In this document: in pieces, positions 26,396 through 42,998 of the stretch
Numbering within the stretch: position 1 is the first letter of the stretch
How the letters are laid out: every line of letters begins with the position of its first letter
Origin: an uncultured Gemmatimonadales bacterium
GTDB taxonomy: Bacteria; Gemmatimonadota; Gemmatimonadetes; Gemmatimonadales; GWC2-71-9
DNA: 64,000 nt
Direction of reading: 5' to 3'
Assembly (NCBI GenBank): GCA_963821525.1
Contig: CAWGED010000004.1
Coordinates: 128,001-192,000, forward strand
Notes under the pieces: generated by a model
The model's database searches: none
Told to the model about the DNA's origin: nothing
Seen by the model: only the letters and a program-made list of their open reading frames with translations
Program-made: the position numbers and the translations under genes

Positions 26396-27973
26396 ATGAC
26401 CCTCCCTGGGGGGCCTACTCCCCCCAAGTCCATCTGGCAGCGCCTCTACAGCACCCGACCGATCACCGCCGCAGCCGTGATCATTGGATGGGTCGGGGTC
26501 TACCTCATCTACCAACAACACTGGACCGGTATTCTCCTCTGCCTCGTGGCCAGTGCCCTGGCACTCATCGCACTGAGACGGGGGCGACGGATCGCGCTGG
26601 AGCAGCGGCGACGGCTTCAACTCGCCCTGGACCGAGCCGCCGCACGCAATCGCGAGCTGGAGGGCCTGCGCCACCTTGCCGCAACCCTTCTTGGATCGAG
26701 CGACGACGTCAACTACCTCTTCCGCGAAATTGCCAAGGCGGCGACCCAGCTGCTTGAAGCCGAAGGCAGCGTGATCACCCTCGTGGTCGAAGAGGGGCGC
26801 TTCCTCAAGGCGGTCGCGACCGACGGGTTCCTGGAAGGCGCCGCCGGCATCCTGATCCCGGCGGACCATTCGTTGACCGGCTGGGTCGTCACCCACGACC
26901 AAGCGCTCCTGAGCGATGACATGCAGGCCGATCCGAGGAGTTACGACGTGGAGGGGTTGACCTCCCGGATGAAAAGCGCGGCGATCGTCCCGCTCCGGTC
27001 GAGCGGCCTCGCGATCGGAACCGTGAGCGTACACAACCGCCGCGACGGCCGCCCCTTCGGCGAGAACGACCTGGAGCTGCTCAAGACCCTGGGAGACCAG
27101 GTCGTCGTCGGAGTGGATCGAGCCCAGATGCTGGACGAGGCTCGCCGCAACCATAGCGCCTTGGAGGACAAGAACCGGGAGCTGCAGCGATCAACCGACC
27201 TGAAGAGCCAGTTCCTCGCCAATATGTCTCACGAGCTCCGCACCCCGCTAAATGCCATCAACGGTTTTTCCGATTTGATGCTGACCGAGGAGATGGGGCC
27301 GATCAACGAGCTGCAGCGGGAGTTCCTCGCCTCCATTCTCCGCAACGGCAAACATCTTCTCGGCCTGATCAACTCGGTGCTGGATCTCTCCAAGATCGAA
27401 GCCGGCCGGATGACGCTGAACCTCGCACCGACTGATTTGCACGCGGCAATCCAGGGAGTAGTGACCGACACGGCCCCCCTCCGCACCAGCAAGGACCAGG
27501 AAGTCCGGGTGGAGGCCGGATCGACGCCGGTGACGATCCTTGCCGACGGCACGAGGCTGAGGCAGATCCTCTTCAACCTGCTCTCCAACGCTTCGAAGTT
27601 CACCCCGGACAGGGGCAGCGTCAGCATTTCCGCCGTCTCCACCCGGGCGCCCCTCCCCATTTCCACTGACAATGACGAGAAACCCCGCCTGGTATCCCGT
27701 GAGGCGGTGTGGGTGTCGGTGAGCGATACCGGAATAGGGATCAAGCCGGAAGACATGCCCAGGCTGTTCCACGAATTCAGCCAGGTGGATACGTCACACA
27801 GCCGGGCTCAGCAGGGTACCGGACTGGGATTGGTGCTATCGAAAAAATTTGTCGAGATGCACGGAGGCACGATCGGTGCCGAGTCGGTTTACGGGCGGGG
27901 GACTACCCTGTGGTTCATCCTGCCGGTGGAAGGCCCGCTGCATCGGACGGGGACGAGGGTCGCAGGAGACTGA
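26396..27973 (+). CDS. Membrane GAF sensor histidine kinase
   Basis: Two TM segments, GAF, ANMSHELRTPL, NLLSNASKFT, DTGIGI, GTGLGL. Confidence 0.95.
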   Translation: MTLPGGPTPPKSIWQRLYSTRPITAAAVIIGWVGVYLIYQQHWTGILLCLVASALALIALRRGRRIALEQRRRLQLALDRAAARNRELEGLRHLAATLLGSSDDVNYLFREIAKAATQLLEAEGSVITLVVEEGRFLKAVATDGFLEGAAGILIPADHSLTGWVVTHDQALLSDDMQADPRSYDVEGLTSRMKSAAIVPLRSSGLAIGTVSVHNRRDGRPFGENDLELLKTLGDQVVVGVDRAQMLDEARRNHSALEDKNRELQRSTDLKSQFLANMSHELRTPLNAINGFSDLMLTEEMGPINELQREFLASILRNGKHLLGLINSVLDLSKIEAGRMTLNLAPTDLHAAIQGVVTDTAPLRTSKDQEVRVEAGSTPVTILADGTRLRQILFNLLSNASKFTPDRGSVSISAVSTRAPLPISTDNDEKPRLVSREAVWVSVSDTGIGIKPEDMPRLFHEFSQVDTSHSRAQQGTGLGLVLSKKFVEMHGGTIGAESVYGRGTTLWFILPVEGPLHRTGTRVAGD

Positions 27974-28940
27974 CCAGCGCCCTTCGCACGTAGACCGGCA
28001 CCATATCCTTGCGCCAGCCGATCGTGAAATCGGTGTTGTCGAGCGGCTTGGCTCTTCGCGCGGCAGCAGTGGCGGCAGCAGTGATGGATTCGTCGGTGAG
28101 CGACTGACCGACCAGCACCTTCTCCGCTTCCTCGCTCTCCATCGGCCAGGATCCCACGGCACCAACCACAATCCGCGCCGCACGGACCAGACCCTGGGGA
28201 TCGAGATCCACCCACGCGGCGACCCCCAATACCGGAAAATCGAAGGCACCCCGGCGCCTGAGCTTCTGATAGTCTGCGCGAGAGGTCCCCAGCGCGGGCA
28301 CCTCGATCCGGACTAGCAACTCGTCCGGCTGTTTGGTGAGAAACTCTATCCCGTCGTTCCGGTAGAGCGAAGCCGCGGGAATCGAGCGGCTTCCTTTGGG
28401 TCCCATCATCGTCACGCTGGCGCCGAGTGCGACCATCACCGGAGCGAGATCGCTCGATTGCACCGCCCAGCAGCGGGGACTCGAAGGAGCCACCCAGCAG
28501 ATCTTGCCGTCCTTCTTCATGCAGAAGTCGATCGCGCGCCGCCACTCGTAGGTCTGGTCGTAGTAATTGCAGCGCGTGTCGAGCAGCAGATTCCCGCCCA
28601 CAGTACCCATGTTTTGCAGGATGGGCGTCGAGATCGTGGCTGCGGCACGAGACAAGACGGGCCACTCCTGCCGCATCAGCGGATGGTGAATCAGCCGAGT
28701 CAGCGTCACAGCCGACCCGATTCTCAGCTGCCCTTCCGCTCCCCGGTCCAGCAGACCCAACTCTGGCACTCGACGGATGTCGATGACATGACGCGGCGTC
28801 TGTTGCAGCCGCTTCATGTTGGGGTAGAGGTCAGTTCCTCCGGCGACGTAAGACGCGTCCAGCCCGTGAGCGGTCTTGATGCGAACCGCCTCGTCTACCG
28901 TGGCGGGGAAGCTGGGCGCGAAAGCGGGCAGGCGCAGCAT
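27915..28940 (-). CDS. Xanthine dehydrogenase family FAD subunit with [4Fe-4S] insertion (HcrB-like)
   Basis: AGGTDL, GTVGGN, DTRCNYYDQ..WR..C.KKDG.IC......RC, AFDFP. Confidence 0.9.
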   Translation of the reverse strand: MLRLPAFAPSFPATVDEAVRIKTAHGLDASYVAGGTDLYPNMKRLQQTPRHVIDIRRVPELGLLDRGAEGQLRIGSAVTLTRLIHHPLMRQEWPVLSRAAATISTPILQNMGTVGGNLLLDTRCNYYDQTYEWRRAIDFCMKKDGKICWVAPSSPRCWAVQSSDLAPVMVALGASVTMMGPKGSRSIPAASLYRNDGIEFLTKQPDELLVRIEVPALGTSRADYQKLRRRGAFDFPVLGVAAWVDLDPQGLVRAARIVVGAVGSWPMESEEAEKVLVGQSLTDESITAAATAAARRAKPLDNTDFTIGWRKDMVPVYVRRALVSLLRPSSPSDAAGLPPAG

Positions 28941-28942
28941 GA

Positions 28943-31387
28943 TCAGGCCGTGGGCACAGCGGTGGAACGCGGCGTCGCCTTACCGTCGCCACCCTCGGCC
29001 GGTGTGCGCACGCAGACCGGCTCCGGCCAGATGATGTGCGGAGTCGAGCTGGGGCCGAACCGCGGCTCGGCTCCCTTGGCCTTGGCCTGCAGCGCCTTGT
29101 ACACCTTGGGCGGGCTCATCGGCACTTCGTCGACCCTGACCCCGACCGCATCGTAGATCGCGTTGGCCACGGCGGGCATGATCGGCAGCAACGGGCCCTG
29201 ACCCGCTTCCTTTGCCCCAAAGGGACCGTTGGCATCAGGTCCCTCGACCAGATAAGTGATCACGTCGGGCATTTCCCAGGTCGTGGGACTCTTGTATTCC
29301 AGCATCGAGGGGAACTTGTGCACCACATTGCGGTTCTCGCGGTACACCATCTCCTCCATCAACGCCTCACCCAGACCCATGTAAACGCTGCCCTCGACCT
29401 GCCCCATGACCAGCACCGGGTTGATGCTGCGGCCGATGTCGTGCGCAATCCAGATAGTAGGAACCCGCACGATACCGGTCTCGGGATCTACTTCGACTTC
29501 GGCGACAGCAGCCGAATAGCTGTACGCCGCGGACGGGCCGACACCGGCGCCACGGTATTTCCCGGGCGGCTTGGGTGGTGCGTAACTCCCGACCGAACCG
29601 ATCGTCCCGAAGCGGGACTCCGCCACGACCACTGCCTCGGCGAAGCTCAGGCCCGGTTCGGGATTCTCTACGTCAAACACCCTGCCTTTGACGAACACGA
29701 TGCGCTCCGGACTCGCGTTCAGCTTCGCCGCCACCGCCTCCGCGATTTGCGCACGGGCTCGCTCGGCCGCTTGAATCGCCGCTTGCCCCGTCATCAGCGT
29801 GACTCGCGACGAGTAGCTGCCGAGGTCGACCGGGGTGAGATCGGTATCGGCGGTGACGACGGCGATGTCGGCCGGTTCAATGCCCAGGATCTCCGCGACG
29901 ATCAATGCGAGGACGGTATCTGAGCCCTGACCGATTTCGGTGGACCCGCAGAAGACCGTCACCCCGCCGCCTCGATCGCATTTGATCTGCACCCCGGAAT
30001 GGGGCATCTCGTTCCAGTAGATCGCCACACCGGCGCCCGTGATGTAGGAGGAACAGGCCAGCCCGATGCCGCGGCCATAGGGCAGCTTGCCGTAACGCTC
30101 CTTCCACCGTGAGCCGGCGACGACTTTCTCGATACACTCGCCCAGCCCGATCGTACCGACACGGAGCCAGTTCGCGGTGATTGTGTTCGGCTTCACCAGG
30201 TGTTTGAGCCGCATCTCCGCGGGGTCGAGCTTCAACTCCTCCGCGATCTTGTCGAGCTGAACCTCCAGCGCGAAGCGTGGCTGCGGAGTGCCGTGACCCC
30301 GCTTGGGACCGCAGGGAGGCTTGTTGGTGAACGCCCGGGCGCCTTTGAACCGGTAGGATGGGATTTCGTAGGTGACGGTCTGCAAGGCGCCGGTGTAGTA
30401 GGTACTCGCGACGCCATAGGAGCCGTAGGCACCACCATCCAGATACGATTCGAAATCCATCGCGGTGATGGCGCCTAGCTTCGTCACTCCGGTCCGGATC
30501 TTCATGAGGACCGGGTGCCGTCCCCGATGACAGTAGAACACCTCTTCCCGCGTGAGGCAGATCTTGACCGGGCGCCCGGTCATCATGGCCAGCTTCGCGA
30601 CCACGATCTCGTGATTGAAGGGATCGCTCTTCCCGCCGAACCCTCCGCCGTTCGGGGTCGCGATCACGCGAATCCGGCTGGGCGGCAACTCCAGCACCTT
30701 TGCCAGCGCCCGATGCACGTAGTGCGGGCACTGGGTCGAGCTCCAGACGGTCACCTTTCCCGCGGCCGAGAACTCCGCCACGGCGGCGTGCTGCTCCATC
30801 GGGAGGTGAGTGTTGCCTTCGTAGAAGAAGAGATCCTCCCGGATCAGGTCGGCCGCCGCGAAGCCGCCTTCCAGGTCGCCAAACTCGAGATTGACCTGCT
30901 TGTGCAGGTTGCCGCTGTCTGCGTAATCGTGAAGCTGGGGGGCCGGAGTTGTTACGGCGTCATCCACCGATCCAATGGTGGTCAGCGGCTCGTAGGTGAC
31001 CTCGATCAGCCGGCAGGCTTCCGCGGCAATGTCTTCGTCCCGCGCCGCGACCGCTGCGACCGGGTCGCCGATGAAGCGGACCACATCGGGACAGAGGGCG
31101 TGCTCGTCCTGGCTGACCGGAAGCACTCCGAACGGAATGGGAAAATCGGCGCCGGTAACCACGGCGTGGACGCCGGGCAGGGCCGCCGCGCGGGAGGTAT
31201 CGATCCGCACGACGCGCGCATGCGGATGAGGACTCCGCAGCAGCTTGCACCAGAGCATCCGGGGAAGGATCAGATCATCGGCGAAGCGGGTCTGGCCCGT
31301 CACCTTGGCCACGCCGTCAATCCGCGGATGCGGTGTGCCTACGACCTGGAAGTCGCGGTCCTTGCCGTCCTTCCGATCAGTGGCCAT
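28943..31387 (-). CDS. Xanthine dehydrogenase family molybdopterin subunit (HcrA-like)
   Basis: KVTG, LRSPHPHA, GGGFGGK, RGHGTPQ, EIGQG, GSYSSR, GQVEG, GPFGAKE. Confidence 0.92.
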   Translation of the reverse strand: MATDRKDGKDRDFQVVGTPHPRIDGVAKVTGQTRFADDLILPRMLWCKLLRSPHPHARVVRIDTSRAAALPGVHAVVTGADFPIPFGVLPVSQDEHALCPDVVRFIGDPVAAVAARDEDIAAEACRLIEVTYEPLTTIGSVDDAVTTPAPQLHDYADSGNLHKQVNLEFGDLEGGFAAADLIREDLFFYEGNTHLPMEQHAAVAEFSAAGKVTVWSSTQCPHYVHRALAKVLELPPSRIRVIATPNGGGFGGKSDPFNHEIVVAKLAMMTGRPVKICLTREEVFYCHRGRHPVLMKIRTGVTKLGAITAMDFESYLDGGAYGSYGVASTYYTGALQTVTYEIPSYRFKGARAFTNKPPCGPKRGHGTPQPRFALEVQLDKIAEELKLDPAEMRLKHLVKPNTITANWLRVGTIGLGECIEKVVAGSRWKERYGKLPYGRGIGLACSSYITGAGVAIYWNEMPHSGVQIKCDRGGGVTVFCGSTEIGQGSDTVLALIVAEILGIEPADIAVVTADTDLTPVDLGSYSSRVTLMTGQAAIQAAERARAQIAEAVAAKLNASPERIVFVKGRVFDVENPEPGLSFAEAVVVAESRFGTIGSVGSYAPPKPPGKYRGAGVGPSAAYSYSAAVAEVEVDPETGIVRVPTIWIAHDIGRSINPVLVMGQVEGSVYMGLGEALMEEMVYRENRNVVHKFPSMLEYKSPTTWEMPDVITYLVEGPDANGPFGAKEAGQGPLLPIMPAVANAIYDAVGVRVDEVPMSPPKVYKALQAKAKGAEPRFGPSSTPHIIWPEPVCVRTPAEGGDGKATPRSTAVPTA

Positions 31388-31922
31388 ACAGACTCTCGCG
31401 CGTCGGTTCCGCGGCTTCGCCGCGCATGCGGGCAGCTGCCAGCTCCACCGCCTCGTAGATTTTCACGTATCCGGTGCAGCGGCAGAGATTGCCGCCCAGC
31501 GCAGAAACGATCTCCGGCCGAGCCGGGGCCGGGTTCTCCTCGAGGAGTGCCTTCGCGGTCAGCAGAATCCCCGGGGTGCAGTAACCACACTGCGCCGCAC
31601 CCAACTCGGCGAACGCCTGCTGCAACGGGTGAAGCTCCGCGCCTGCCGCAAGACCTTCCACCGTGGTGACCGACCGATTCTCGCAGGCCACTCCCAGCTC
31701 GAGGCAGGAGAGGATGGGAACACCGTCGACTAAGACGGTGCAGGTCCCGCATTCGCCGAGCTCACATCCGTGCTTGGTGCCGGTGAGTTGTAAGTCTTCG
31801 CGAAGCACTTCAAGGAGAGTCTTCTGGGGGGCGACGAGACATTCAACCCGCTCTCCGTTCACCTCGAGGGAGAGTGGAGATTTTGGTAAAGATGGGGTAA
31901 GCGTCACCAAAGGATTTCCCAT
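31377..31922 (-). CDS. Xanthine dehydrogenase family 2x[2Fe-2S] subunit (HcrC/CoxS-like)
   Basis: GCELGECGTC, QCGYCTPG, GNLCRCTGY. Confidence 0.95.
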   Translation of the reverse strand: MGNPLVTLTPSLPKSPLSLEVNGERVECLVAPQKTLLEVLREDLQLTGTKHGCELGECGTCTVLVDGVPILSCLELGVACENRSVTTVEGLAAGAELHPLQQAFAELGAAQCGYCTPGILLTAKALLEENPAPARPEIVSALGGNLCRCTGYVKIYEAVELAAARMRGEAAEPTRESLYGH

Positions 31923-31939
31923 CGAGCCTCGCTGTCTGA

Positions 31940-32012
31940 CTCCTGGTCCGCCTCGTCCGTCTTGTTCGCCCTGTCCGCCCAACCGCCATGCCGCCCGACC
32001 GCCTTCCCGCCC
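31940..32012. repeat. Degenerate 9-mer and 8-mer tandem repeats with CCGCC cores
   Basis: Direct reading. Confidence 0.55.
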
Positions 32013-32015
32013 GAA

Positions 32016-32333
32016 TTACAACGGCTTCAATTTCGCCAGCACCTCCGCCACCACTCCCGCAGGAACCCTGCATGCCAGCTCCGCCTGTCGAGCTTCCCAA
32101 TCGGCGCTTCGCAGGTGATCGGCCAGGACCACGCCCCGAACCGGCAGGTCGTCGGGCAAGGCGACCTCGAAGGGATAGCCCTTCGCCGAAGGGGCGATCG
32201 CGCACATGAGAGCCAGTCGCGCCCTGCTGTTGTAGTGCGCCGGCGAGACCACGAGCGCGGCGCGGCGCGCGACCTTCTGCCCGTTATCAGGCTCGACCGT
32301 CACCCACACTACATCGCCTCGGTCCGGCGTCAC
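32016..32333 (-). CDS. mazF: PemK/MazF family toxin (active-site motifs degenerate)
   Basis: PDRGDVVWV, ALVVSP..YN, KGYPFEV, GVVLAD.LRS.DW.AR. Confidence 0.85.
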   Translation of the reverse strand: MTPDRGDVVWVTVEPDNGQKVARRAALVVSPAHYNSRARLALMCAIAPSAKGYPFEVALPDDLPVRGVVLADHLRSADWEARQAELACRVPAGVVAEVLAKLKPL

Positions 32334-32569
32334 ACGACCTCACGCCCGACCGGCTTACCCCAGTCGGTTTCACCGTGACGGTTCTCTGGCGTGATCTGAT
32401 CGGCCAACTCCTCGAGCCCATACTCCCGGCCTAGGGGAGTCAGGACGATGCGACCGCCGGAGACACTGATATCAACCTCAGACCCCTCGGCCAAGCCCGT
32501 TTCCAGACTGAACGCCTTGGGGATTCTGATTCCCAAACTATTACCCCACTTCGAGATACGTGCGCGCAT
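32330..32569 (-). CDS. mazE: AbrB/MazE family antitoxin
   Basis: ISKWGNSLGIRIPK...ITPENRHGETDWGKPVGREV; GTGA overlap with the toxin. Confidence 0.92.
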   Translation of the reverse strand: MRARISKWGNSLGIRIPKAFSLETGLAEGSEVDISVSGGRIVLTPLGREYGLEELADQITPENRHGETDWGKPVGREVV

Positions 32570-32584
32570 CAGATGCGACCATGT

Positions 32585-32626
32585 TGTATATACATTGAAG
32601 ATACGGACAATGAATGAGTCGGTCAA
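32585..32626 (-). promoter_or_regulatory. mazEF promoter and palindromic operator
   Basis: TTGACC-N17-TATCTT followed by the TGTATATACA palindrome. Confidence 0.75.
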
Positions 32627-32650: not shown

Positions 32651-32679
32651 TGGACGCGATCCCGCCACCATTCTAGCTT
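32651..32679 (+). promoter_or_regulatory. Candidate promoter for the metal-uptake island (near-leaderless)
   Basis: TGGACG-N17-TAGCTT, 8 nt before ATG 32688, no SD. Confidence 0.5.
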
Positions 32680-32687
32680 CGATCCCC

Positions 32688-33029
32688 ATGCGAGCTTCTA
32701 GTCGCCGCCGCTCGGCGCTCACCCTGCTGGTCGTGGTCCTCCTCGGGGGGATCATCATGCCGGGTGTGGATGCCATACTGTTCCACGGACGCGGCGCCGG
32801 CACAACCTTCGGAGCCCGCCTCGAAGCCACCAGTAGCGGTGAGCATGCAGTTCAGTGTCCCCAGGCCGACCAGCTTCGCAGCGGTCGCGCCCTCGCCGCG
32901 ACTCCGCCTCAGACCAACACCGCGCCTCCGATTGGAATCGCGGTCATCGTTTGCAACACTCCTCTCCTGCTCTCCACTCCGGTCCATACTCCGGTACTCC
33001 CTCGCGCACCGCCGTCGCTCCTCGCCTGA
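32688..33029 (+). CDS. RAPP-motif leader/arrest peptide 1 (DUF2946/CruR-like, 113 aa)
   Basis: Basic then hydrophobic N-terminus, DAILFH, HAVQC, Pro-rich linker, LPRAPPSLLA*; paralogue at 36411. Confidence 0.75.
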   Translation: MRASSRRRSALTLLVVVLLGGIIMPGVDAILFHGRGAGTTFGARLEATSSGEHAVQCPQADQLRSGRALAATPPQTNTAPPIGIAVIVCNTPLLLSTPVHTPVLPRAPPSLLA

Positions 33030-33103
33030 TCAGCTCATTTCCCGATAACTGATTAACCAGTCCGGTCACGGCTTCTTTCGGCCGGATCTTGCTCTGGAGT
33101 TCT

Positions 33104-34468
33104 ATGACAGACCGCTCACGTTGTGCGGTCCTCCTGTTCGTCCTCCTCATGGCGAGGTGGAGGGATCGCCAAACGCGCAGGTTCCCGATTCCGCTCTCGG
33201 CGCAGTCCACGCGCTGAACGCGCGGCTCGACTCTCTGGAGGCGGGGACCTGTCCCACGGGACCGGCGGTTCAAATCCCGGTCCACCCTACTGGTGCACCG
33301 GGAGCAGACAGTCTTGCATCAGCCCTCGACCAATTGAATCAGCGCGTCGAGAAGCTCGTAGCCCAACGTTGCCTGGGAGCCGCACCCGATACCACAACCG
33401 ACGACCTCGCGGCGTTGCGGGCGGCCGCCGACTCCGCCGCAGGACGGCCGGTTTCGGCGCCGAAGGACACCACGGCCGCCGGCGGCACCGAGTTCATTGG
33501 GCGCCAGCGCAACGGCTCAGCCATGAATCCGGAAATCAGCGCCACGGGGGACATTCGGCTCATCGGGGAGGACGGCACCGAGCATTTCAAGGCGACAGGC
33601 GCGGGAATTCGAGGTGGGGCTGCAGTCCACTCTGGATCCCTACTCAACCGCCAAGGTCTTCCTGACCTTCGAAGACGATCACGTCGGAGCGGAGGAAGGC
33701 TATCTGTACTGGACCGGTCTGCCCGGGCGGATCAGGGCGGACGTGGGACTCTTCCGGCAACAGGTCGGCGACCTCAATCGCTGGCACCTCCATGCGCTCC
33801 CCGAATCGGAGTACCCGCTGGTCTATCGCCGCTATTTCGGCGACGACGGATTATCGGGCGTAGGCCTCTCGCTCTACACCGCCCTCCCGGTTTCCCTGGC
33901 ACACGGCACCCACGAGATTTGGTTCCAGGGAACTTCGGCCGAGAGCGATCCGCTCTTCGGAAGCGACCACCACACCACCCTCTTAGGCCGGCTCCAGAAC
34001 TTCTGGCAACTGAGCCGGAGCACCTATGGGCAGATCGGATTCACGGCATTCGGGGGAGACAACTCCGACAGCGCGCTTACCAGCCGGGTACTGGGCCTCG
34101 ATGCCCGGCTGACCTGGCGTCCACCCAATGCCGGCACCCGGCAGGACCTTACCCTGAGAGCCGAAGGCTATCAGTTCCATTCCACCGAGGCGGGTCTCAC
34201 ACAGACTCGTTACGGTGGCTTTATTGACGCGGCGTTCCGGGTTAGCCAGCGCTGGATCCTCGGCGCCCGTTACGACTACGTCGAAACACCGCGGGGCCCT
34301 GATACGAATGAATGGGGAATAGCACCCGCCATTACCTGGTGGCAGAGTGAGTTCGTGTATCTCCGGCTGGAAGGGCAGCATCTCGACAACAGCGTCAACG
34401 GCACCGACAACCGGGTTCTGCTCCAGGCGGTGTTCGCCATGGGCCCCCACAAGCATGAGACCTACTGA
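33104..34468 (+). CDS. Outer-membrane beta-barrel metal-uptake porin-like protein (frameshifts near 33160 and 33605)
   Basis: TGGAG RBS, signal peptide, coiled coil, MNPEISA.GD, G.LN.WH.HALP, WWQSEF..LRL, C-terminal GPHKHETY. Confidence 0.75.
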
Positions 34469-34469
34469 T

Positions 34470-35557
34470 ATGATTCTCGCCCTTCTCGCCATCGCTACCG
34501 GCATCTTCGCCGAGCCGCCCAGTCATTATCCTGCCGAGCCACCGAGCCGCCGAGCCGCCGAGCCGCCGAGCCGTCCTGCCGCCGCGCCGCTCAAGATCGT
34601 CACCAGCCTCACGACCTACGGCGCCATCGCGCGGGAGATCGCCGGCGACCGCGGCACCGTCACCTCCATCGCCCAGGGCGACGAAGACCCGCACTTCGTG
34701 CAGCCCAAGCCGAGCTTCGTGGCGCTGCTCCGCGACGCGGACCTCTTCGTCACCACCGGGCTCGACCTCGAGCTCTGGGTTCCCGCCCTCCTCGACCGGG
34801 CCAACAACCGAAAGGTCTTGGAGGGGGGCCGGGGTACGTCGCGGCCTACACCGGCATCACGCTGCTCGAGGTCCCGACCAGTTGAATCGGGCGCAGGGGG
34901 ACATTCACGCCGACGGCAATCCCCACATTCACACCGATCCGCTGAATGGGATCATCATCGCGCGGAACATCCTCACCGGCTTGACCCGGGTCTCGCCGGG
35001 AGATGCCGGCTACTTCACCGATCGGGAGAAGGATTTCGAGAAGCGGGTTCTCGAGGCCACCATGGGGCAGGAGCTGGTCGGCATCCTGACTCCCGCCACC
35101 GCGTTCGACCTGCTCAAGACCGACAAGCTGTTCGACTTCATCGGTCGCACCAAGTATCAGGGCAAGCCGCTCGCGGATCAGCTCGGCGGCTGGCTCAAGC
35201 AGGGTGAGGTGTTCCGGGGGAAGGAAATGGCCTGCTACCACAAGGAGTGGGCCTATTTCAGCAACCGCTTCCAAGGTCACCTGCGCCACATACATCGAGG
35301 CCAAGCCGGGCATCCCGCCGACCCCGAAGCACGTGGAGGAGGTCATCGCGCTCGATGAAGGAGCGGAAGATTCCGGTGCTCTTCGCGTCCAACTACTTCA
35401 ACCGCTCGCAGATCGAGCAGGTGGCGGACAAGACCGGCGCCAAGGCAGTGATCGTGCCGGAGAACACCCACGGCGCGCCGGGCATCGAGACCTACTTTGA
35501 CCTCATCAACGCCTGGGTCTCCGGCCTCGGCTCGAGCCTACAACGGAGGGCGTCTGA
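34470..35557 (+). CDS. Metal ABC substrate-binding protein (ZnuA/TroA cluster; several frameshifts)
   Basis: EDPHFV.PKPS, GDIHADGNPH..TDP, YHKEW.YF, IEAKPGIPPT.KH. Confidence 0.85.
34510..34572. repeat. Octamer (GCCGAGCC)n array inside the coding sequence
   Basis: Direct reading; encodes AEPPS..AEPPSRRAAEPPSRP. Confidence 0.8.
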
Positions 35558-36403
35558 TGCTCGACCAGTTGTGCACACTCTGGCTGCCGCCGCTGGTGGC
35601 CTGCATGGTCATCGTGGCGATCCATTCGTATCTCGGACTCCATGTCATCGCGCGCGAGGTCATCTTCGTGGACCTCTCGCTGGCGCAGATGGCGGCGCTG
35701 GGATCCACCATTGCCATTTTCGCCGGCGCCGATCCCGATTCGACTCGCAGCTTCGCCTATGCCCTGGGCTTTACCACGCTGGGTGCCGCGCTGTTCGCGC
35801 TGACCCGCACCGGCAATCACGGGCGGGTGCCTCAGGAGGCGATCATCGGCATCGTGTTCGTCGTTGCCTCCGCAGCCGCCATTCTGGTGGCCGACCGGTC
35901 GCCGCGGGGCGGCGAGGCAATCAAGGACATCCTGGTGGGGAGCCTGCTCTGGGTGGGCTGGCCGGCGATCGGCCGACTGGCGGTGGTCTATCTCCTCGTC
36001 GGGCTCTTTCACTGGGTCCTGCGGAAGCGGTTCCTCACCATTTCCTTCGAGCCGGAGGTCGCGATCGCCAAGGGGTGGAACCTGAGCTGTGGGATTTCCT
36101 GTTCTATCTCTCGTTCGGCCTGGTGATCACCTTCTCGGTGCCGATCGTCGGAGTGCTGCTGGTCTTCTCCTTCCTGGTGGTCCCGGCGGCGATCGCATTT
36201 CAGTTTGCCCACGGCAGGGGGCGCTGGCGATTCTCTCCTGGCTGGCCGGTGTGATTTCCTCGGCGGGCGGGCTCTGGCTCTCGTTCCGTTACGATCTGCC
36301 TACCGGCCCGGTAGTGGTCTGCGTGTTTGGTCTCCTGCTCCTGCTTGCCTACACGGCTCGAAAGGTCATGGGGGTCGAGAGTAAGAGAGCGGTTCCAGCG
36401 TGA
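35557..36403 (+). CDS. Metal ABC transporter permease (ZnuB/ABC-3; frameshifts near 36085 and 36220)
   Basis: YLGLHVIAREVIFVDLSLAQ.AALG, EAIIGIV, GVLLVFSFLVVPA, DLPTGP. Confidence 0.88.
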
Positions 36404-36410
36404 GTTCGTG

Positions 36411-36752
36411 ATGCGTCGGCTGCAAGTTGGGTTTCAGGCGCTGTGTGCCGCCATTCTTCTGGTGGCGGGCAGTGCCTTGCCGACGTACGACGCTATTTGC
36501 TATCACGGCGCTCGCTTCCCGGATCGTGGACAGGTCCGGATCGAGGCGGCCACCGGTGGTACCGCGCACCTCCTGACCTGTGCCCTTGGGCGCCAGTTCC
36601 AGCGCTCGAGGGCAGTGCTTCCACATTCCGCACCAACACGGTGGTTGCCTCGGACGGCGCCTATCACGCCGCTCCCTCCGCCGCCGGTCGCTCCCCCTGC
36701 GCCGGCTCCTACCCTTCAACGATCGCGCGCCCCTCCAGTCCCCATCGCCTGA
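36411..36752 (+). CDS. RAPP-motif leader/arrest peptide 2 (DUF2946/CruR-like, 113 aa)
   Basis: Hydrophobic N-terminus, DAICYH, HLLTC, Pro-rich linker, RSRAPPVPIA*. Confidence 0.75.
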   Translation: MRRLQVGFQALCAAILLVAGSALPTYDAICYHGARFPDRGQVRIEAATGGTAHLLTCALGRQFQRSRAVLPHSAPTRWLPRTAPITPLPPPPVAPPAPAPTLQRSRAPPVPIA

Positions 36753-36797
36753 TCTCCTGGTGATCAGCTGATATCGCCGCTTTCCGGTCCTGCCGGG

Positions 36798-36828
36798 GAG
36801 ACGGCCTTCTTGGACATGGGAGGGTCTC
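36798..36828 (+). promoter_or_regulatory. RBS-sequestering hairpin ahead of the TonB-dependent receptor gene
   Basis: GAGAC/GTCTC and CCTTCT/GGGAGG pairing buries the SD immediately before ATG 36829. Confidence 0.65.
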
Positions 36829-39084
36829 ATGCATTGGTTTTTTCTAGCGGTCACTGTGCTGTCCGCGGGCGACGGCCCCGCCGTCTCTGCACCCACACCA
36901 GTTGCGCCGCGCAGTCTCATGGGACGGGTTACGACCAAATCCGGTCAGCCGGTCCTCGATGCCCGGGTGCTGGTTGTTGAGCTGCGTCATTCGGTCCAGA
37001 CCGATCCGGATGGGCGGTACAAGATTCCGAACCTGAATCCCGGCAGCTATACCGTCTCCTTCTCGCAGATCGGCTATGCCCCGGAAACCCGCCGGATCAC
37101 TCTGGGGGACAGCGATCTGACGCTCGACGTTTCACTAAAAGAGTCGCTAGTCGAATTGCCGCCAATTCAGGTCACAGCGACGCCCAGCGCAACCGAACCT
37201 CTGACCTCCCCGCAGCCTACGGCGGTGGTCGAAGGCGAGGATCTTCAGCGCGCACAAGCCTCAAGCTTGGGCGAGACGCTCAATCAAGTGGCGGGTGTCC
37301 ACAGCCTCAGCACCGGAGTCGGGATTGGGAAACCGGTGATTCGCGGGCTCACCTCGAACCGGGTCCTGATTCTGGATGACGGCCAGCGACTCGAGACGCA
37401 GCAGTGGGGCGATGAGCACGGTCCCAACCTGGAAACGGCTGGCGCAGAGCGGATCGAGGTGATTCGCGGGCCGGCCAGTGTGCTGTACGGCTCCGACGCA
37501 TTGGGCGGCGTCGTCAACGTGATTCAGCCCCCTCTTCCCGTAGCCACAGAGGGCCATGGGCCAGTTGAGGCGCAATTGAGCGCCTCATACGGAAGCAACA
37601 ACCGGCAACCCAATGGCGCGCTCAGCATCGCCGGAGCGAAGGGCGGCTTCGGATTCCGAGGAACGATCAGCGGGCGGCAGAGCGAAGACCTTCAGACTGC
37701 GAACTACGAGTTGTGGAACAGCGGCAACGAAGCCGTCGGCGGGAGCGGAACGGTGGGGTATCGCGGGTCCTGGGGGTCCGTTGCCGGCACGATTTCGCAG
37801 CGAAACGAAAAGATCGAGCTGACCGACGAAGATCCCTTGGCGACACCGCTTCAGCGGATCGCCACGACCCGAGGGAGGGTGAACCTCACCTTGCCGATCT
37901 CCGGGGCACGGCTGGAGCTGGCGGGCGGTTACGAACGCAACCGGCGGCGGGAATTCGAAGACAAGTTCACCTCCGACGTTGCGCTTGGCCTGCTGTCCCA
38001 GAATTACACCCTGGACGCCCGCTATTACCACGCTCCCTGGGGGTCAGTGCACGGCATCCTCGGCGTCTCGGGTGGCCACCTCGCGTTCGACAAGTTTGGT
38101 GAGGAGACGCTCATTCCCAACAACCGTACCAACACCATCGGGGTCTACGGATTCGAGCAGGTCACCCTGGGTCGCTGGGATCTTTCGGTCGGTCTCCGCT
38201 ACGACTATCGCCACCTTGATGTAGATGAGGACGCCGTGATAGCTGTGACCGCTCAGACCAGGAACTGGAATGCCTTGACGGGCAACTTGGGAGCACTATA
38301 TCGCCTGGCCGATCCGGTTGCGCTGGTACTGAACGTGGGACGCGGATTTCGCGCCCCGTCGAGTTTCGATCTGTTCTCCAACGGAGTGCACGAGGGAACC
38401 GTGGCCTTCGAGCGTGGAAACCCGAATCTCAACACGGAAAAGTCGCTCAATACCGATCTCGCCCTGCGGGTGCAGACCGCCAATGTGGCCCTAGAGCTGG
38501 GTGGGTTTCTGAATCTGATTCAGGATTACATCTACAGCGTCCCCACTGGAGCTACCGATCCCGCGTCGGGCTTTCAGATCTATGACGTGACCCAGGGCGA
38601 TGCGCGACTCACCGGGCTCGAGGCGGCGGCGCAGTATCACCCCACCGCATGGCTGCACTTGCAGGGAACCGCCGACTACGTCTACGGGACGAATACATCC
38701 ACCGGCAATGCTCTGCCGGCCATGCCACCATTCCGCGCTACCTACAGCGTGCGGCTCGAGAGCCGGCGGCAGGGTTTCCTGCATGTGCCCTATCTTTCGG
38801 TCGGCGGCGAAAGTAACGCGCAGCAATCACGGCAGGATCCCGCGGAAGCCGTGTTCTACAGCCAAGCCTTCGGCGGCCAAGGCTACCAATCGGAAGCCTA
38901 TACTTTGATCAATGCTGGGACGGGATTCGGTCTCGCTGCTGGTGCGAACGATGTGCATTTCGATTTCACGGTCCGCAACGTCTTCGACAAGGCTTACGCC
39001 GACTATTTGAGTCGCATCAAGACCAATGCGCTGAATCCGGGCATGGGCCGGAGCTTTGTCATGCAGGTGAGTACCGCGTTCTGA
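36829..39084 (+). CDS. TonB-dependent receptor with N-terminal carboxypeptidase-regulatory-like domain
   Basis: KPVIRG, QQWGDEHG, IEVIRGPASVLYGSDALGGVVN, GFRAP, NGVHEG, C-terminal F. Confidence 0.95.
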   Translation: MHWFFLAVTVLSAGDGPAVSAPTPVAPRSLMGRVTTKSGQPVLDARVLVVELRHSVQTDPDGRYKIPNLNPGSYTVSFSQIGYAPETRRITLGDSDLTLDVSLKESLVELPPIQVTATPSATEPLTSPQPTAVVEGEDLQRAQASSLGETLNQVAGVHSLSTGVGIGKPVIRGLTSNRVLILDDGQRLETQQWGDEHGPNLETAGAERIEVIRGPASVLYGSDALGGVVNVIQPPLPVATEGHGPVEAQLSASYGSNNRQPNGALSIAGAKGGFGFRGTISGRQSEDLQTANYELWNSGNEAVGGSGTVGYRGSWGSVAGTISQRNEKIELTDEDPLATPLQRIATTRGRVNLTLPISGARLELAGGYERNRRREFEDKFTSDVALGLLSQNYTLDARYYHAPWGSVHGILGVSGGHLAFDKFGEETLIPNNRTNTIGVYGFEQVTLGRWDLSVGLRYDYRHLDVDEDAVIAVTAQTRNWNALTGNLGALYRLADPVALVLNVGRGFRAPSSFDLFSNGVHEGTVAFERGNPNLNTEKSLNTDLALRVQTANVALELGGFLNLIQDYIYSVPTGATDPASGFQIYDVTQGDARLTGLEAAAQYHPTAWLHLQGTADYVYGTNTSTGNALPAMPPFRATYSVRLESRRQGFLHVPYLSVGGESNAQQSRQDPAEAVFYSQAFGGQGYQSEAYTLINAGTGFGLAAGANDVHFDFTVRNVFDKAYADYLSRIKTNALNPGMGRSFVMQVSTAF

Positions 39085-39090
39085 CGGATG

Positions 39091-39118
39091 AGGGCGGGGC
39101 ACTGCTGTGCCCCGCCCT
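39091..39118 (+). terminator. Perfect 12-bp hairpin after the receptor gene (terminator or mRNA stabiliser)
   Basis: AGGGCGGGGCAC-tgct-GTGCCCCGCCCT; weak U-tract. Confidence 0.65.
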
Positions 39119-39165
39119 ATTCCACTAAATTCACCCCCTCACCCTTTTCGTACAGGAGTTTGCCC

Positions 39166-39549
39166 GTGTCGGTTCGTTCTGGTCTTCTGGCTTCACTCGC
39201 TGCGGCCTCGCTCGTTTCTGTCGCTGCCGCGATGCACACTCACCTGGTCAAAGCCGAGCCTACCGTGGATGGCACGATCACGGAGGCCCCCAAGCAGGTT
39301 CGCCTCTGGTTCAACGAGCGGCCCGAGGTGGCGCTTTCCTCCGCCGCGCTGCTCTCCAGCGATAGCGCACCGGTTGCCCGGATCACTCTGGGGAAGACGG
39401 ACGATTCCTTGAGTGTCGCGGGTTCGATCCCGGTGAGCCTCGCCCCCGGCGGATACATCGTGGTCTGGAAGACTGGTTCTGCAGATGGTCACCCGGTACG
39501 CGGGTCCTACAAGTTCACTTACTCCGCTCCGACTGGCGCCAGTAATTGA
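39166..39549 (+). CDS. copC: Copper resistance protein CopC
   Basis: AGGAG RBS, signal then HTHLVKAEP, LWFNE, SADGHPVRG. Confidence 0.9.
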   Translation: MSVRSGLLASLAAASLVSVAAAMHTHLVKAEPTVDGTITEAPKQVRLWFNERPEVALSSAALLSSDSAPVARITLGKTDDSLSVAGSIPVSLAPGGYIVVWKTGSADGHPVRGSYKFTYSAPTGASN

Positions 39550-39550
39550 C

Positions 39551-40505
39551 GTGGACCATCAGGTCGCCGCTCTTCCGCTCGACCTCTACGCCCTGGCCCG
39601 CTGGATCGCGTACACCGCGACCATGGTCACGATCGGTGGCGGCGTCTGTGCCTGGCTGCTCGGGAGAATCCCCGAACGCGATGGTAGGAGTAACCTAGCC
39701 CTCGACGCAGCCCGCGAGACAACTTGGGGGCTGGCACTTGCGGCGCCGATCGTTCTGATCGGCGCCCATTTGCTTCGGCTCTACGGGCAGGCGCGGGCCT
39801 TCCTCGAACCGGCCGAGCCCATCACGTCCGACGGAGTCCATGCCATCGTCGCCGGTACCACGTGGGGGCGAGGCTGGATCGTTCAAATCTCCGCCGCGAT
39901 CGCTGCCGCCATCCTCCTCGCCGCGGCTCGCTGGCGAACTAATCGGAACGGACCCAAAGTCCCGGCGGAAGCCGTTGTGGCGGCGTTGCTGGTTGCGTTC
40001 GCCTCGCCGCTTACCGGACACGCGATGGAAAACCCCTGGGGTCGGGTCGCCGGTGTGTCGCTTCACGGGCTGCACCTTCTCGGCGCCGGAGTCTGGCTCG
40101 GCACTCTGTTTGTGCTCTTCATGGCGGGGTTTCGCGGCGTGCGCGAGGGTGGCGCCTTTGAAGGCACCGCACTGCTCGCCCGCCTGGTGCGGGCCTTCTC
40201 GCCCCTCGCCCTGAGTGGTGCCTCGGTCGTAGTGGGAGCCGGCGTGCTGCTCGGGGTGGCCTACGTGGGAAGCCTCGAGGCACTCTGGGGTACTACTTAT
40301 GGAAAGACGCTCTTGATCAAGATCGCGCTGCTCGCTGTCACCGCGGCGTTGGGCGCGTATCACTGGAAATCTCTCACGCCGCGGCTCGATTCCGTGCAAG
40401 GCGCTTCCGTCTTTCGCGGGTCCGCGGCCGTCGAGCTGACCCTGCGCGGCCCTCCTGCTCGGCGCTACCGCGGTCCTCGTTGCTCTGCCGGCCCCCAAAC
40501 TATGA
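39551..40505 (+). CDS. copD: CopD family copper uptake membrane protein (frameshift near 40445)
   Basis: LTGHA, LHLLGAGVWLGTL, TTYGKTLLIK; restored end ...LVALPAPKL* overlaps the next ATG. Confidence 0.85.
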
Positions 40506-41128
40506 CTACCGCAACAGCCTTCCGTTCGGTCGCCTTGCTTCTCGCACTCCTGGCTTGCGACCAGAAACCTCAGACCTTCAATCCGTCAGGACTCGCGGGA
40601 CCGTCGCTTGGCCAGGCGATTCCCAAGCCCGACTTCACGCTCACCGCGACCGACGGATCGCAGTTCAATTTCCGCCAGCAGACCGAGGGCAAGATCGCGC
40701 TGCTCTTCTTCGGCTATACCCATTGCCCGGATGTCTGTCCGGTTCACCTCGCGAACATCGCCGCGGCACTCCACACCCTCGATCCCGAGGTCCAGCGGAA
40801 GGTGGAAGTCGTATTCGTCACCACCGATCCCGACCGCGATACGCCGGAGGTCATCCGCGCCTGGCTCGACAAGTTCGACCCGAAATTCGTCGGTCTCCGG
40901 GGCACTCTGGACGAGGTGAACGCAATCCAGCGGGGACTCAAATTGGGTGAAGCGTCGCGGGAGCCGCAGCTGGCGCCGGGGGACACGGGCTACAGCGTTG
41001 GCCACGCCGCGATCGTGCTGGCCTTCACACCCGATGACTCGGCGCACGTGGTCTATCCCTTCGGGGTGCGCCAGTCCGACTGGGCGAAGGACCTGGAACT
41101 CCTGGCCAAGATGACGGGACCCGCGTGA
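40502..41128 (+). CDS. SCO1/SenC copper chaperone lipoprotein
   Basis: LLAC lipobox, FFGYTHCPDVCP, DPDRDT, YSVGH. Confidence 0.92.
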   Translation: MTTATAFRSVALLLALLACDQKPQTFNPSGLAGPSLGQAIPKPDFTLTATDGSQFNFRQQTEGKIALLFFGYTHCPDVCPVHLANIAAALHTLDPEVQRKVEVVFVTTDPDRDTPEVIRAWLDKFDPKFVGLRGTLDEVNAIQRGLKLGEASREPQLAPGDTGYSVGHAAIVLAFTPDDSAHVVYPFGVRQSDWAKDLELLAKMTGPA

Positions 41129-41575
41129 TTCGACGCCTGCTCGCCGGCGGTGCTCCTCGTCTGTTGGAGCTGCGGCAAGCCGGCACCGCCGACCCTTAAT
41201 GCAGAGTTCGGCAACATCCGCATCACAGGCGGGTTCGCGTATTCCCCGATCACCCAGGAATCCGGTGCGGCCTACTTCACGATCCGCAACACCGGCGACA
41301 AACCGGATACACTCGTGTCGGCCCAGTCTCCGATCGCAAAGTCGGCGATGATTCACGGAACGATGCAGTCCGAAGGCGCCGCCGGGATGGCGAGGATCGA
41401 ACGGCTTCCCATCCCTCCCGGTGAAGAGGTGACCCTCAAGCCTGGCGGGACGCATCTGATGCTCGAACAGCTCAGCCGACTTCCCAAGCCCGGTGAGCGG
41501 ATGCCTGTCGTTCTCATCTTCAGTCGAGCGGGCACGGTCACCCTGGAACTTCCGGTCAGGGCCTACAACGAATGA
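41125..41575 (+). CDS. Copper chaperone PCu(A)C (N-terminal frameshift likely)
   Basis: AAYFTIRN, MIHGTM...GM, LKPGGTHLML. Confidence 0.9.
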
Positions 41576-42411
41576 CATGGTGGTGCTCGGCTACCGGCCA
41601 GCCTTGGACCTGGGCCTGGAAGGCCTATCCCGGCGTGTGGCTGTTCGTGGCACTGCTCGCCGTCCTGTACCTGCGTGGCATCCGCCGAGCCGACCGAGCC
41701 TGCGCGAGCCGCCGAGCCGCCCTCTACTACTTCGCCGGCCTCCTCACCGTCTGGCTCGCGCTCGACTGGCCGATCGGCCCGCTGGGTACCGGCTACCTGA
41801 TCAGCTTCCACACCGTCAGCTACATCCTCCTGAGCCTCATTGCCCCACCTCTCCTTCTGGCCGGCATTCCCAGCGAGGTGATGCTGCGTGCCGCTCAGGC
41901 GCCTCGTGCGGGCCGGTTGCTCAGAATCCTGACCCGGCCGCTCATCGCGCTTGCGCTGTTCAATGCGATCCTCATCGGCACCCACATTCCGGATGTAGTC
42001 GATGGGCTGATGAGGTCCCAGCTCGGCGCCTTCGCCATCGACCTGGCGTGGTTCCTCGGCGGGATCGTTCTCTGGTGGGCGATCATGGCTCCCCCGCCGG
42101 TGTGCCGCCTGAATCGCCCTATGAAGATGGGATACCTCTTCGCTGCGACACTTCCACCGATTCTCCCGGCGGCCTTCCTCACCTTCGCCGATTACCCGCT
42201 CTACGCGGTGTACGAGCTCGCCCCGCGGGCATTCGATCTCCCCGCCCACTCCGATCAGCAGATCGCGGGTCTCACCATGAAGATCATCGGCGACCTTCCC
42301 CTCTGGTTCGCCTTCGGGGTGATCTTCTTCCGCTGGGCTCGCGAGTCGGGCGGCTCCAATCCGGTACATCCAAGCGTGGCCCAGCAGAGCGCTACCGGTA
42401 GCGCCGCTTGA
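41572..42411 (+). CDS. Cytochrome c oxidase caa3 assembly factor (CtaG_caa3 family)
   Basis: DWPI..L..YL.S.H....LL...APPLLL.G, DQQIAGL.MK. Confidence 0.85.
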   Translation: MTWWCSATGQPWTWAWKAYPGVWLFVALLAVLYLRGIRRADRACASRRAALYYFAGLLTVWLALDWPIGPLGTGYLISFHTVSYILLSLIAPPLLLAGIPSEVMLRAAQAPRAGRLLRILTRPLIALALFNAILIGTHIPDVVDGLMRSQLGAFAIDLAWFLGGIVLWWAIMAPPPVCRLNRPMKMGYLFAATLPPILPAAFLTFADYPLYAVYELAPRAFDLPAHSDQQIAGLTMKIIGDLPLWFAFGVIFFRWARESGGSNPVHPSVAQQSATGSAA

Positions 42412-42998
42412 AGCTTCATCTGGTGCGGCACGGCCCCGCCCTCGACGCCGACGGGCGAGCGATGGGCCACACCGACGCTCCGTTGTCTCCCGAAGGGATC
42501 GAGCAGGTCGCGCGACTGGTCACGGCATGGCCGAGAACTCCGAGCCGAATCTGGTCGAGTGATCTTCGTCGCGCGCGGGAAACAGCCGAGCGGATTGGTC
42601 AGCGTTGGGATGTGGCGCCGGCAATCGATGCGCGGCTTCGCGAGATGAATTTCGGAGAATGGGATGGGCGCTTCTGGAATGCGCTCGAGCGGGAGGATCC
42701 CGACCGCCTCAAACACTGGATGGAGAGCTGGGTAACCGAACGAGTCCCCGGCGGCGAGTCTTTCACCCTCTTATCAGAGCGGGTTCGCGACTGGTACGCC
42801 CGATGCCTCGCCGACCCGGCTGAGGAAATCGTCGTTGTTGCCCACGCCGGGAGCATTCGAGCACTGCTCTGCAATCTGCTGGAGGTTCCGCTCTCGAAGG
42901 CGTTCGAGTTCCCGGTCGATCGACTACGAATCTCTACCGTCGAAATCGCCGAATCCGGGGCCCGGCTGCTGGCCTTGAACAGTCCGGAGGTTCTCTAG
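42408..42998 (+). CDS. Histidine phosphatase family protein (CobC-like)
   Basis: LVRHG, SSDLRRA, LREMNFGEWDG, PGGES, VAHAGSIR. Confidence 0.9.
   Translation: MKLHLVRHGPALDADGRAMGHTDAPLSPEGIEQVARLVTAWPRTPSRIWSSDLRRARETAERIGQRWDVAPAIDARLREMNFGEWDGRFWNALEREDPDRLKHWMESWVTERVPGGESFTLLSERVRDWYARCLADPAEEIVVVAHAGSIRALLCNLLEVPLSKAFEFPVDRLRISTVEIAESGARLLALNSPEVL

Follow-up and report, generated by a model that had tools for sequence, protein, structure and literature searches.

In the literature compared here, metal-dependent control by arrest peptides has been shown only for copper, in the upstream open reading frame (uORF) products CruR (Bp2923; Roy et al. 2022, PMC9426467) and CutF (Rhodobacter capsulatus; PMC9973294, bioRxiv 10.1101/2025.02.05.636593). 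CruR carries a CXXC motif at residues 90-93 and the motif RAPP at residues 139-142, with a spacing that matters for regulation (PMC9426467); its arrest and toeprint are shown in PMC12992588, which names RAPP and RGPP as the pair of motifs that arrest in many contexts. Here we analyzed 64,000 nucleotides (nt) of an uncultured Gemmatimonadales bacterium (contig CAWGED010000004.1, positions 128,001 to 192,000; this whole stretch is called the window), in which two open reading frames (ORFs) of 113 amino acids (aa), leader 1 (32688..33029, + strand) and leader 2 (36411..36752, + strand), each precede a gene for an outer-membrane transporter. Both ORFs are likely to be cis-acting arrest leaders of the CruR/CutF (DUF2946-like) kind that would act by the scheme set out below; that they are metal-responsive arrest leaders of one variant or another appears highly probable.

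The twin leaders and their family

Translation of the two ORFs reproduced exactly what an earlier note on this DNA, made from the sequence alone, had described as a twin pair. Both ORFs contain P-x2-DAI-x-[FY]-HG, R-[LI]-EA, His53-x3-Cys57 and RAPP at positions 106-109, followed by four residues. Leader 1 stops at 33029, 74 nt before the ATG at 33104, and leader 2 at 36752, 76 nt before the ATG at 36829. Leader 1 comprises a hydrophobic helix, Asp28/His33, His53-x3-Cys57, a linker and RAPP codons at 33003-33014, while leader 2 comprises a helix, Asp27/His32, His53-x3-Cys57, a Pro-rich linker and RAPP codons at 36726-36737. The N-terminal hydrophobicity (KD17) is 2.54 and 1.97 for leaders 1 and 2, with 4 and 2 preceding basic residues, respectively. 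BLASTP aligned the two leaders at 31% over 55 aa (E 9e-7), and direct Pfam and NCBIfam scans gave no match for either ORF. An RAPP at most 10 residues from the stop is rare in the window genome (41 of the 40,786 stop-to-stop segments of at least 60 aa), and a search of this genome with the family profile matched exactly two places, i.e., leaders 1 and 2. In all five close ortholog pairs compared, the ratio of nonsynonymous to synonymous differences (pN/pS) of the leaders was 0.15-0.34 (0.00-0.23 for residues 20-62), which indicates that the leaders are real genes. Both ORFs are thus conserved and under purifying selection; a lack of conservation would have refuted the reading of the earlier note.

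As a homolog search with a single sequence found 3 proteins, alignment-based searches were required. The family search used a 20-sequence profile and gave 424 protein clusters (50% identity) at E<=0.001. Profile matches were present in 51 of the 201 genomes of the order (42/94 in the bacterium's own family, 6/12 in a second family and 2/94 in a third); the named homologs are from Gemmatimonadales, and the leader family carries no annotation. From 100 loci, 73 distinct leaders were taken, and conservation was counted in the best 150 of the 424 cluster representatives. In one of the other searches, hits above E 1e-5, except L018 and L029, were non-members on inspection and were dropped; the weak hits L090-L092, which represent CxxC or other forms, were kept in the locus counts.

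Among these best 150 representatives, Asp27, His32 and Cys57 were found in 150 and His53 in 149, counts that are partly circular and weaken the case to that extent, since the search profile held the Asp/His/His/Cys columns invariant. The C-terminal motif was RAPP in 138 and RGPP in 3. The distance from Cys57 to the Arg of this motif was 47-50 residues in all 140 measurable representatives (49 in 111 and 48 in 25), and the other leader columns, apart from the four metal-type residues, were 24% identical. The telling part of this conservation is the linker, which is unconserved in sequence and fixed in length. The earlier note's proposal that RAPP leaders with Asp/His/His/Cys residues and a fixed spacing form a conserved family is thus upheld in these representatives. 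No Cys was found at +3 from Cys57 in the 140 representatives, and among 67 loci it occurred in one, a bridge form of a sister lineage; 73/140 representatives have an extra Cys ahead of Cys57, at a distance of up to 12 residues and in most cases of 5 or 7. A hydrophobic N-terminal segment (KD17 >=1.6) was present in 67 of 70 leaders, and three of the 73 loci had no terminal in-frame RAPP (L003:5959, L076:1631 and L061:6621, the latter with a long tail). Many genomes contain two or three leader copies, 3-6 kb apart. At locus L061 (genome G253) three leaders form one run, preceding a porin gene, a class-A receptor gene with a lipoprotein gene, and a class-B receptor gene with the same copper cluster as in the window; the receptor that precedes copCD there differs from that in the window.

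Relation to CruR and DUF2946 leaders

The first Cys of CruR is residue 90 and its RAPP Arg residue 139, which places CruR in the same 49-residue register as the one-Cys leaders. The C-terminal RAPP, the spacing of 49 (+/-2) residues and the N-terminal helix or export signal of DUF2946 (PF11162) leaders are all present in the one-Cys family, and the CXXC is not. In a Pfam check suggested in the earlier note, neither window ORF matched PF11162 (gathering cut-off 23.7 bits), but 6/20 and 11/138 of their relatives gave weak matches, the latter with E<=0.01 and below this cut-off; the best E was 6.3e-4, equal to 20.9 bits for a member scored individually. Searching the phylum with PF11162 gave matches in 57 of 301 genomes, 10 of them over the cut-off, and 30 PF11162 loci yielded 21 CxxC leaders, mostly from sister families and many with the pattern D..HxE..H-x3-C-x2-C. 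In these CxxC leaders the first Cys lies 47-50 residues before RAPP, and the targets are often the same as in the one-Cys family.

An alignment of CxxC leaders (20 PF11162-derived leaders plus L090, of which 20/21 match PF11162) was compared to the one-Cys family by hhalign, which matched the two end to end over 114 columns with a probability of 97.35 (E 1.6e-11) and placed Cys57 onto the first Cys of the CxxC and a small residue onto the second. D-x4-H was found in 150/150 one-Cys representatives as compared to 2/21 CxxC leaders. In a tree of both forms, built without six CxxC rows (one of them mis-cut), one-Cys and CxxC changed into one another 3 times as compared to 12.4 times when shuffled. 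The branch separating them had a support of 88/94 (unstarred), so that the tree set the two forms apart only moderately and did not establish that the one-Cys form arose once. Common descent is itself open to objection, as the sensor region alone scored >10 bits for just 2/21 CxxC leaders (reversed maximum 2.6), so that the homology call leans on the helix, the spacing and RAPP, and the choice of the comparison set by PF11162 added circularity. Weak sensor-region scores and moderate tree separation together make common descent with the CxxC leaders likely, not proven. By sequence comparison, the one-Cys leaders are likely a branch of the CruR/DUF2946-like leaders rather than an independent family, and the second Cys of the CXXC was likely lost, and a His32 beside the membrane helix fixed, in the Gemmatimonadales branch. 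The "CxxC-less family" of the earlier note therefore holds for the absence of CXXC in 140 representatives and does not hold as a family set apart from DUF2946, considering the hhalign result and the spacing in CruR. A strict assignment to DUF2946 is contradicted by the missing CXXC and by scores below the cut-off, and the mode of action would resemble that of CruR/CutF. Within one genus, intermediate leaders combine D-x4-H either with CxxC (L113, L133) or with an altered site plus RGPP (L092). In another family of the class, four CxxC-RAPP leaders (L108, L110, L117, L127) precede a gene for an ATP-binding cassette (ABC) ATPase, not an outer-membrane protein.

CruR as described in PMC9426467 shares with the one-Cys leaders an export-signal uORF with a Cys 49 residues before the RAPP Arg, RAPP 1-5 residues from the end, a conserved spacing, a C-rich 3' end, and a TonB receptor and copper chaperone as neighbours. 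The one-Cys family differs from CruR in that it has no CXXC (0/140) with fixed D-x4-H and H-x3-C, scores below the Pfam cut-off, has a shorter spacer (median 74-106 nt as compared to 162 nt) with an anti-Shine-Dalgarno in the stall codons, and has ZnuA-type and ZneA-like targets, probably leaderless starts and tandem copies inside operons. CutF is likewise an exported leader with a short spacer, for which sensing is placed in the periplasm; its stem masking the Shine-Dalgarno (SD) sequence may have a counterpart at importer loci of the one-Cys family, and 29 CutF-like clusters with Cys, His and mixed sites have efflux (OEP) and TonB neighbours (PMC9973294); CutF, however, has CxxxC, a PPP-type end and a copper-induced stall, as compared to H-x3-C and RAPP here. 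Fujiwara et al. 2025 (PMC12992588) describe RAPP/RGPP uORFs (including Streptomyces lividans SLIV_16130 and SLIV_18480) for small secretory RAPP proteins that occur before TonB receptors and PCu(A)C and for which His/Cys were proposed as metal sites; the covered part of that paper contains neither the ligand set described here nor the porin-ZnuA target nor twins in series. SecM, ApdA and ApdP share an RAPP-class stall in which the stalled ribosome unmasks the next SD sequence, but they monitor Sec activity, control sec genes and have no metal site.

Two elements of the reading in the earlier note were already on record: non-CXXC sensing, as His-only and mixed Cys/His leader variants are reported as a class in PMC9973294, and RAPP uORFs before TonB receptors, which are reported across Gram-negatives in PMC12992588. 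No paper was found on the one-Cys Gemmatimonadales branch (a search for "Gemmatimonad" with "arrest peptide" gave 0 hits), and Gemmatimonad* is absent from the main texts and searched supplements of the arrest-leader papers, although it may be listed in the logos or File S1 of PMC9973294, in one supplementary file of PMC12992588 or in the bioRxiv supplements. The principle, the 49-residue spacing and non-CXXC variants are thus known, and the interest of this branch lies in the likely ligand swap, the zinc-leaning targets and the use of one sensor at the head of both import and export genes. This branch could help to show how metal makes or breaks a stall, as nature has apparently exchanged a ligand here while keeping the 49-residue register, hundreds of variants and His-plus-CXXC intermediates exist, and close paralogues head import and export genes in one genome. 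The identity of the sensed metal, the side of the membrane on which it would be sensed and the factor behind the sign of the response thus become approachable questions.

Target genes, mRNA wiring and the sensed metal

The earlier note's expectation that family members lie upstream of metal transport genes was borne out. In all 72 loci with sequence, the first downstream gene encodes an outer-membrane transporter, i.e., a class-A TonB receptor (27 loci), a porin-like protein (20), a class-B receptor (13) or a TolC-like protein (12), while sec, yidC or dsb was the first downstream gene in 0/72. Among loci with at least 5 kb downstream, the porin gene was followed by a ZnuA-type gene in 15/15 and the TolC gene by czcA in 7/7. 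All five pumps tested passed TIGR00914 (CusA/CzcA), and one pump compared with solved structures scored 783 bits for ZneA and 528 bits for CusA. The class-B receptor has no solved relative, and the covered part of the CrtA paper (PMC12914433) offers no membership motif. Zinc-like and copper-like signals are mixed among the targets, which lean to zinc. On the leader tree, target class changed 27 times as compared to 37 times when shuffled, and one starred clade joins five receptor leaders and three efflux leaders; this frequent switching suggests that the cassette is portable. Two ideas on the efflux leaders were rejected, i.e., that they form a clade of their own (their 12 rows require at least 8 changes) and that they have a distinct ligand set (extra Cys in 7/12 as compared to 6/18, 13/25 and 6/12 in the other classes). 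At L062, L064 and L068, a leader precedes czcCBA and a paralogue precedes an importer gene in one genome region, the second of these leaders lying directly after czcA at L062 and L068; at L069, an unannotated 137-aa ORF with a signal-like start (345-755, - strand) follows czcA and may encode a small metal-related protein. A Zur study lists DUF2946 genes near czrCBA among the down-regulated genes (PMC4176598).

Leader 1 is preceded by a putative sigma-70-type promoter (32651..32679, + strand) with a -35-like hexamer, a 17-nt spacer and a TAnnnT -10 box ending 8 nt before the ATG; the same layout was found in L001 and L061, leader 1 has no SD sequence, and a consensus promoter scan did not call this promoter. 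In 39 of 74 loci the start is preceded by a TAnnnT box whose end lies 6-10 nt away, as compared to 0-3 loci in each of eight other 5-nt bins, and few of the leaders in the loci compared have an SD sequence. Many leaders therefore look leaderless, and leader 1 is probably located on a leaderless mRNA; the covered part of PMC10783764 contains nothing on leaderless genes in this phylum. Leader 2, on the other hand, lacks a -10 box, only 7 nt separate its start from the stop of the permease gene, and 8/27 class-A leaders directly follow such a permease gene. The twins are thus probably in series on one transcript, and the separate checkpoints proposed in the earlier note become doubtful. Upstream ORF length proved too noisy a measure for telling operon-first from mid-operon leaders, and this division was dropped.

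Leader 2 carries an anti-SD in the Ala-Pro-Pro codons of RAPP itself (36731..36736, + strand), which is predicted to pair with 36819-36824 before the receptor gene (probabilities 0.63-0.83; also in the minimum free energy and centroid structures, z -1.43). In leader 1, an anti-SD in the tail codons (33017..33021, + strand) is predicted to pair with GGAG at 33096-33099 (probability ~0.6) and would lie within the footprint of an RAPP-stalled ribosome, in a region that folds no better than shuffles (z 0.75). Masking the stalled footprint cut the cost of opening the next ribosome-binding site (RBS) by 3.27 kcal/mol on average across 70 loci, as compared to 1.71 after synonymous recoding (real higher in 51/70) and 1.84 with swapped leaders (real higher in 47/70). 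The first Pro codon of RAPP is CCT in 30/71 leaders as compared to 52/484 linker prolines, and this choice creates the SD complement. The same codon is CCC in 1/71 leaders (33% in linkers) and the RAPP Arg is CGA in 19/71 (7% in linkers), which may reflect frameshift avoidance at the stalled codon or slow decoding. The genome has a Rho gene, and an excess of C over G by >10% marks the final 150 nt of 70/73 leaders as compared to 7% of genome windows; intrinsic terminators and promoters were at chance level in a consensus scan. A second, divergent Rho-like gene (G000:C8:261938-263047 in the window genome) scores below the TIGR00767 cut-off.

We propose that the ribosome would stall when the first RAPP Pro occupies the P site, as in CruR, while the N-terminal helix would enter Sec with the N-terminus inside and Asp27/His32 facing the periplasm. 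Given the lengths of the ribosome tunnel and the translocon, about 50 residues of chain would span the two, and His53/Cys57 would emerge beside Asp27/His32. Under metal scarcity, the stall would persist, with the ribosome covering the anti-SD and the C-rich (rut-like, i.e., Rho utilization-like) leader end, and the importer would be made. When a divalent ion closes the four-residue site, this would pull the chain and release the stall, upon which the hairpin would re-form over the importer RBS and/or Rho would terminate. With leader 2 inside an operon headed by leader 1, the twins would act in series. At exporter loci, either metal would strengthen the stall as in CutF, or the mRNA wiring would be inverted. 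We advance with considerable reserve the wider idea that a copper-sensing CXXC leader was turned into a zinc-type sensor by trading the second Cys for His, and that this portable, often leaderless and stacked leader heads importers as well as CzcCBA exporters; the sign of the response would then depend on how the mRNA is wired behind the stall site and not on the peptide.

The same arrest might instead respond to copper, as in CruR/CutF, with the His-for-Cys swap merely retuning affinity or redox state. CruR ancestry and the extra Cys in 73/140 representatives are in line with this, as are the CopC/CopD/SCO/PCuAC genes behind leader 2 and CopA or CsoR after 7/18 class-A receptors (CsoR after 2/7 class-B receptors). 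His-rich sites can bind Cu(II). The points opposed to copper are the three-His-type ZnuA in 15/15 porin loci, a tested pump that is ZneA-like and not CusA-like, and the window receptor, whose best solved relative is ZnuD (E 2.4e-23, a weak resemblance; OprC E 6.6e-14) and which scores 81.5 against a copper-receptor model with a cut-off of 472. Moreover, copper-delivery genes follow the class-A receptor in just 2/18 loci with at least 5 kb downstream; the Cu-delivery unit that the earlier note assigned to leader 2 is present here, but the copper cluster after leader 2 is atypical of the family. On balance, this copper version of the arrest is possible and somewhat doubtful. As for the ion itself, zinc or a similar divalent ion has about an even chance, copper comes behind it as a serious second candidate, and any other metal appears unlikely. 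A SecM-like monitor of export or envelope folding, released by translocon pull or thiol state and tuning outer-membrane protein load, would explain why the first downstream gene encodes an exported outer-membrane protein in each of the 72 loci, why a hydrophobic N-terminal segment is so common (67/70) and why importers and exporters share the leader. It is quite improbable given four near-invariant metal-type residues amid poorly conserved columns, and a cargo that consists of metal transport only, with neither sec nor dsb first downstream in any of the 72 loci. That the ORFs encode small periplasmic proteins which are anchored in the membrane, bind metal and function once they have been made, with an incidental RAPP, would agree with the anchor, the His/Cys cluster and the purifying selection; this is very improbable because the linker is fixed in length and not in sequence, RAPP is replaced mainly by RGPP and shows codon bias, one copy precedes each transporter gene (up to three per locus), and the leader model lacks a folded domain.

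The metal-responsive arrest scheme that we prefer has several observations to reckon with, beginning with the CopA/CsoR and CopC/CopD/SCO/PCuAC genes just mentioned, which favor copper. The AlphaFold model of the leader (helices 2-32 and 51-65, pTM 0.33, no folded domain) yields no distances between Asp/His/His/Cys and no defined four-ligand site. The export signal of CruR is dispensable (PMC9426467), and sensing may thus be cytoplasmic. The RBS effect at efflux loci was 3.02 as compared to 3.35 for the swap control, so that the excess is confined to importers, and that of leader 1 (1.7) equaled its swap control (1.8); in these comparisons, start codons were picked by script, some of them doubtful, and related loci are not independent. 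The C-richness of leader ends is confounded by proline codons. Finally, because the same family heads efflux operons (12/72), a single logic in which metal releases the stall and the gene is turned off is insufficient.

Genes around the leaders and state of the assembly

The gene after leader 1 (33104..34468, + strand) encodes a porin-like outer-membrane beta-barrel protein with an N-terminal helical part; it is frameshifted here and intact (452 aa) in locus L001. The protein has no Pfam or NCBIfam match, its nearest named Atlas cluster is Porin_O_P (in 22% of cluster members), and its low-confidence model (pLDDT 42.6) shows about 17 strands with weak beta-barrel matches; a family name from this model was dropped, as the model was too poor. 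The porin-like family (33104-34468; L001:2693-4048) has an N-terminal helical pair with two Cys and a conserved His-rich C-terminus, is unannotated, is always followed by the ZnuA-type gene in the loci examined, and is a candidate TonB-independent metal porin. Next are a gene for a ZnuA-family metal-binding protein (34470..35555, approximate ends, + strand; PF01297 in three fragments, frameshifted here), for which the third ligand position of an intact ortholog aligned to a His of streptococcal Lmb, a zinc-binding protein, and a gene for an ABC-3 (ZnuB-type) permease (35557..36403, + strand; PF00950, frameshifted here, an intact 283-aa ORF in L001). No ATPase gene adjoins the ZnuA/permease unit (34470-36403), here or in two relatives. 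Behind leader 2, the class-A TonB-dependent receptor gene is intact (36829..39084, + strand; 751 aa, PF00593 and PF07715, with no NCBIfam model over the cut-off) and is followed by genes for CopC, CopD, SCO1/SenC, PCu(A)C, CtaG and a histidine phosphatase (39088..42998, + strand).

In this assembly, single-base indels split the porin-like, ZnuA-like and permease genes, and a 1-nt indel near 40444 is all that joins SCO1/SenC to CopD; in the closest relative, the porin, permease, CopD and SCO genes are unbroken and each forms an ORF of its own. Compared to that relative, the flanks showed 46 indels in 17.2 kb and 74 in 18.4 kb, and the locus 29 in 12.4 kb. This equal density indicates assembly error in one or both genomes rather than decay of the locus, and some contigs of relatives from one sequencing run lack the indels of the window. 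Between 12900 and 61300 of the window, there are about 2-4 non-triplet indels per kb relative to the closest relative, and many genes are split.

The earlier note's statement that no metalloregulator gene lies nearby was confirmed, as Fur, CsoR, ArsR, MerR, DtxR and NikR had no match in the window, the nearest candidate being a weak HTH_5 match about 39 kb off. Elsewhere in the 81%-complete genome, Fur, CsoR, ArsR, MerR and DtxR are present, and NikR was not found. Divergent from leader 1 lies a mazE-mazF type toxin-antitoxin pair (32016-32560, - strand; PF04014, PF02452), and an AT-rich palindrome near 32582-32593 is probably part of its promoter. Further upstream, 27915-31982 (- strand) encodes the three subunits (FAD, Mo and 2Fe-2S) of a xanthine dehydrogenase-type molybdenum hydroxylase.

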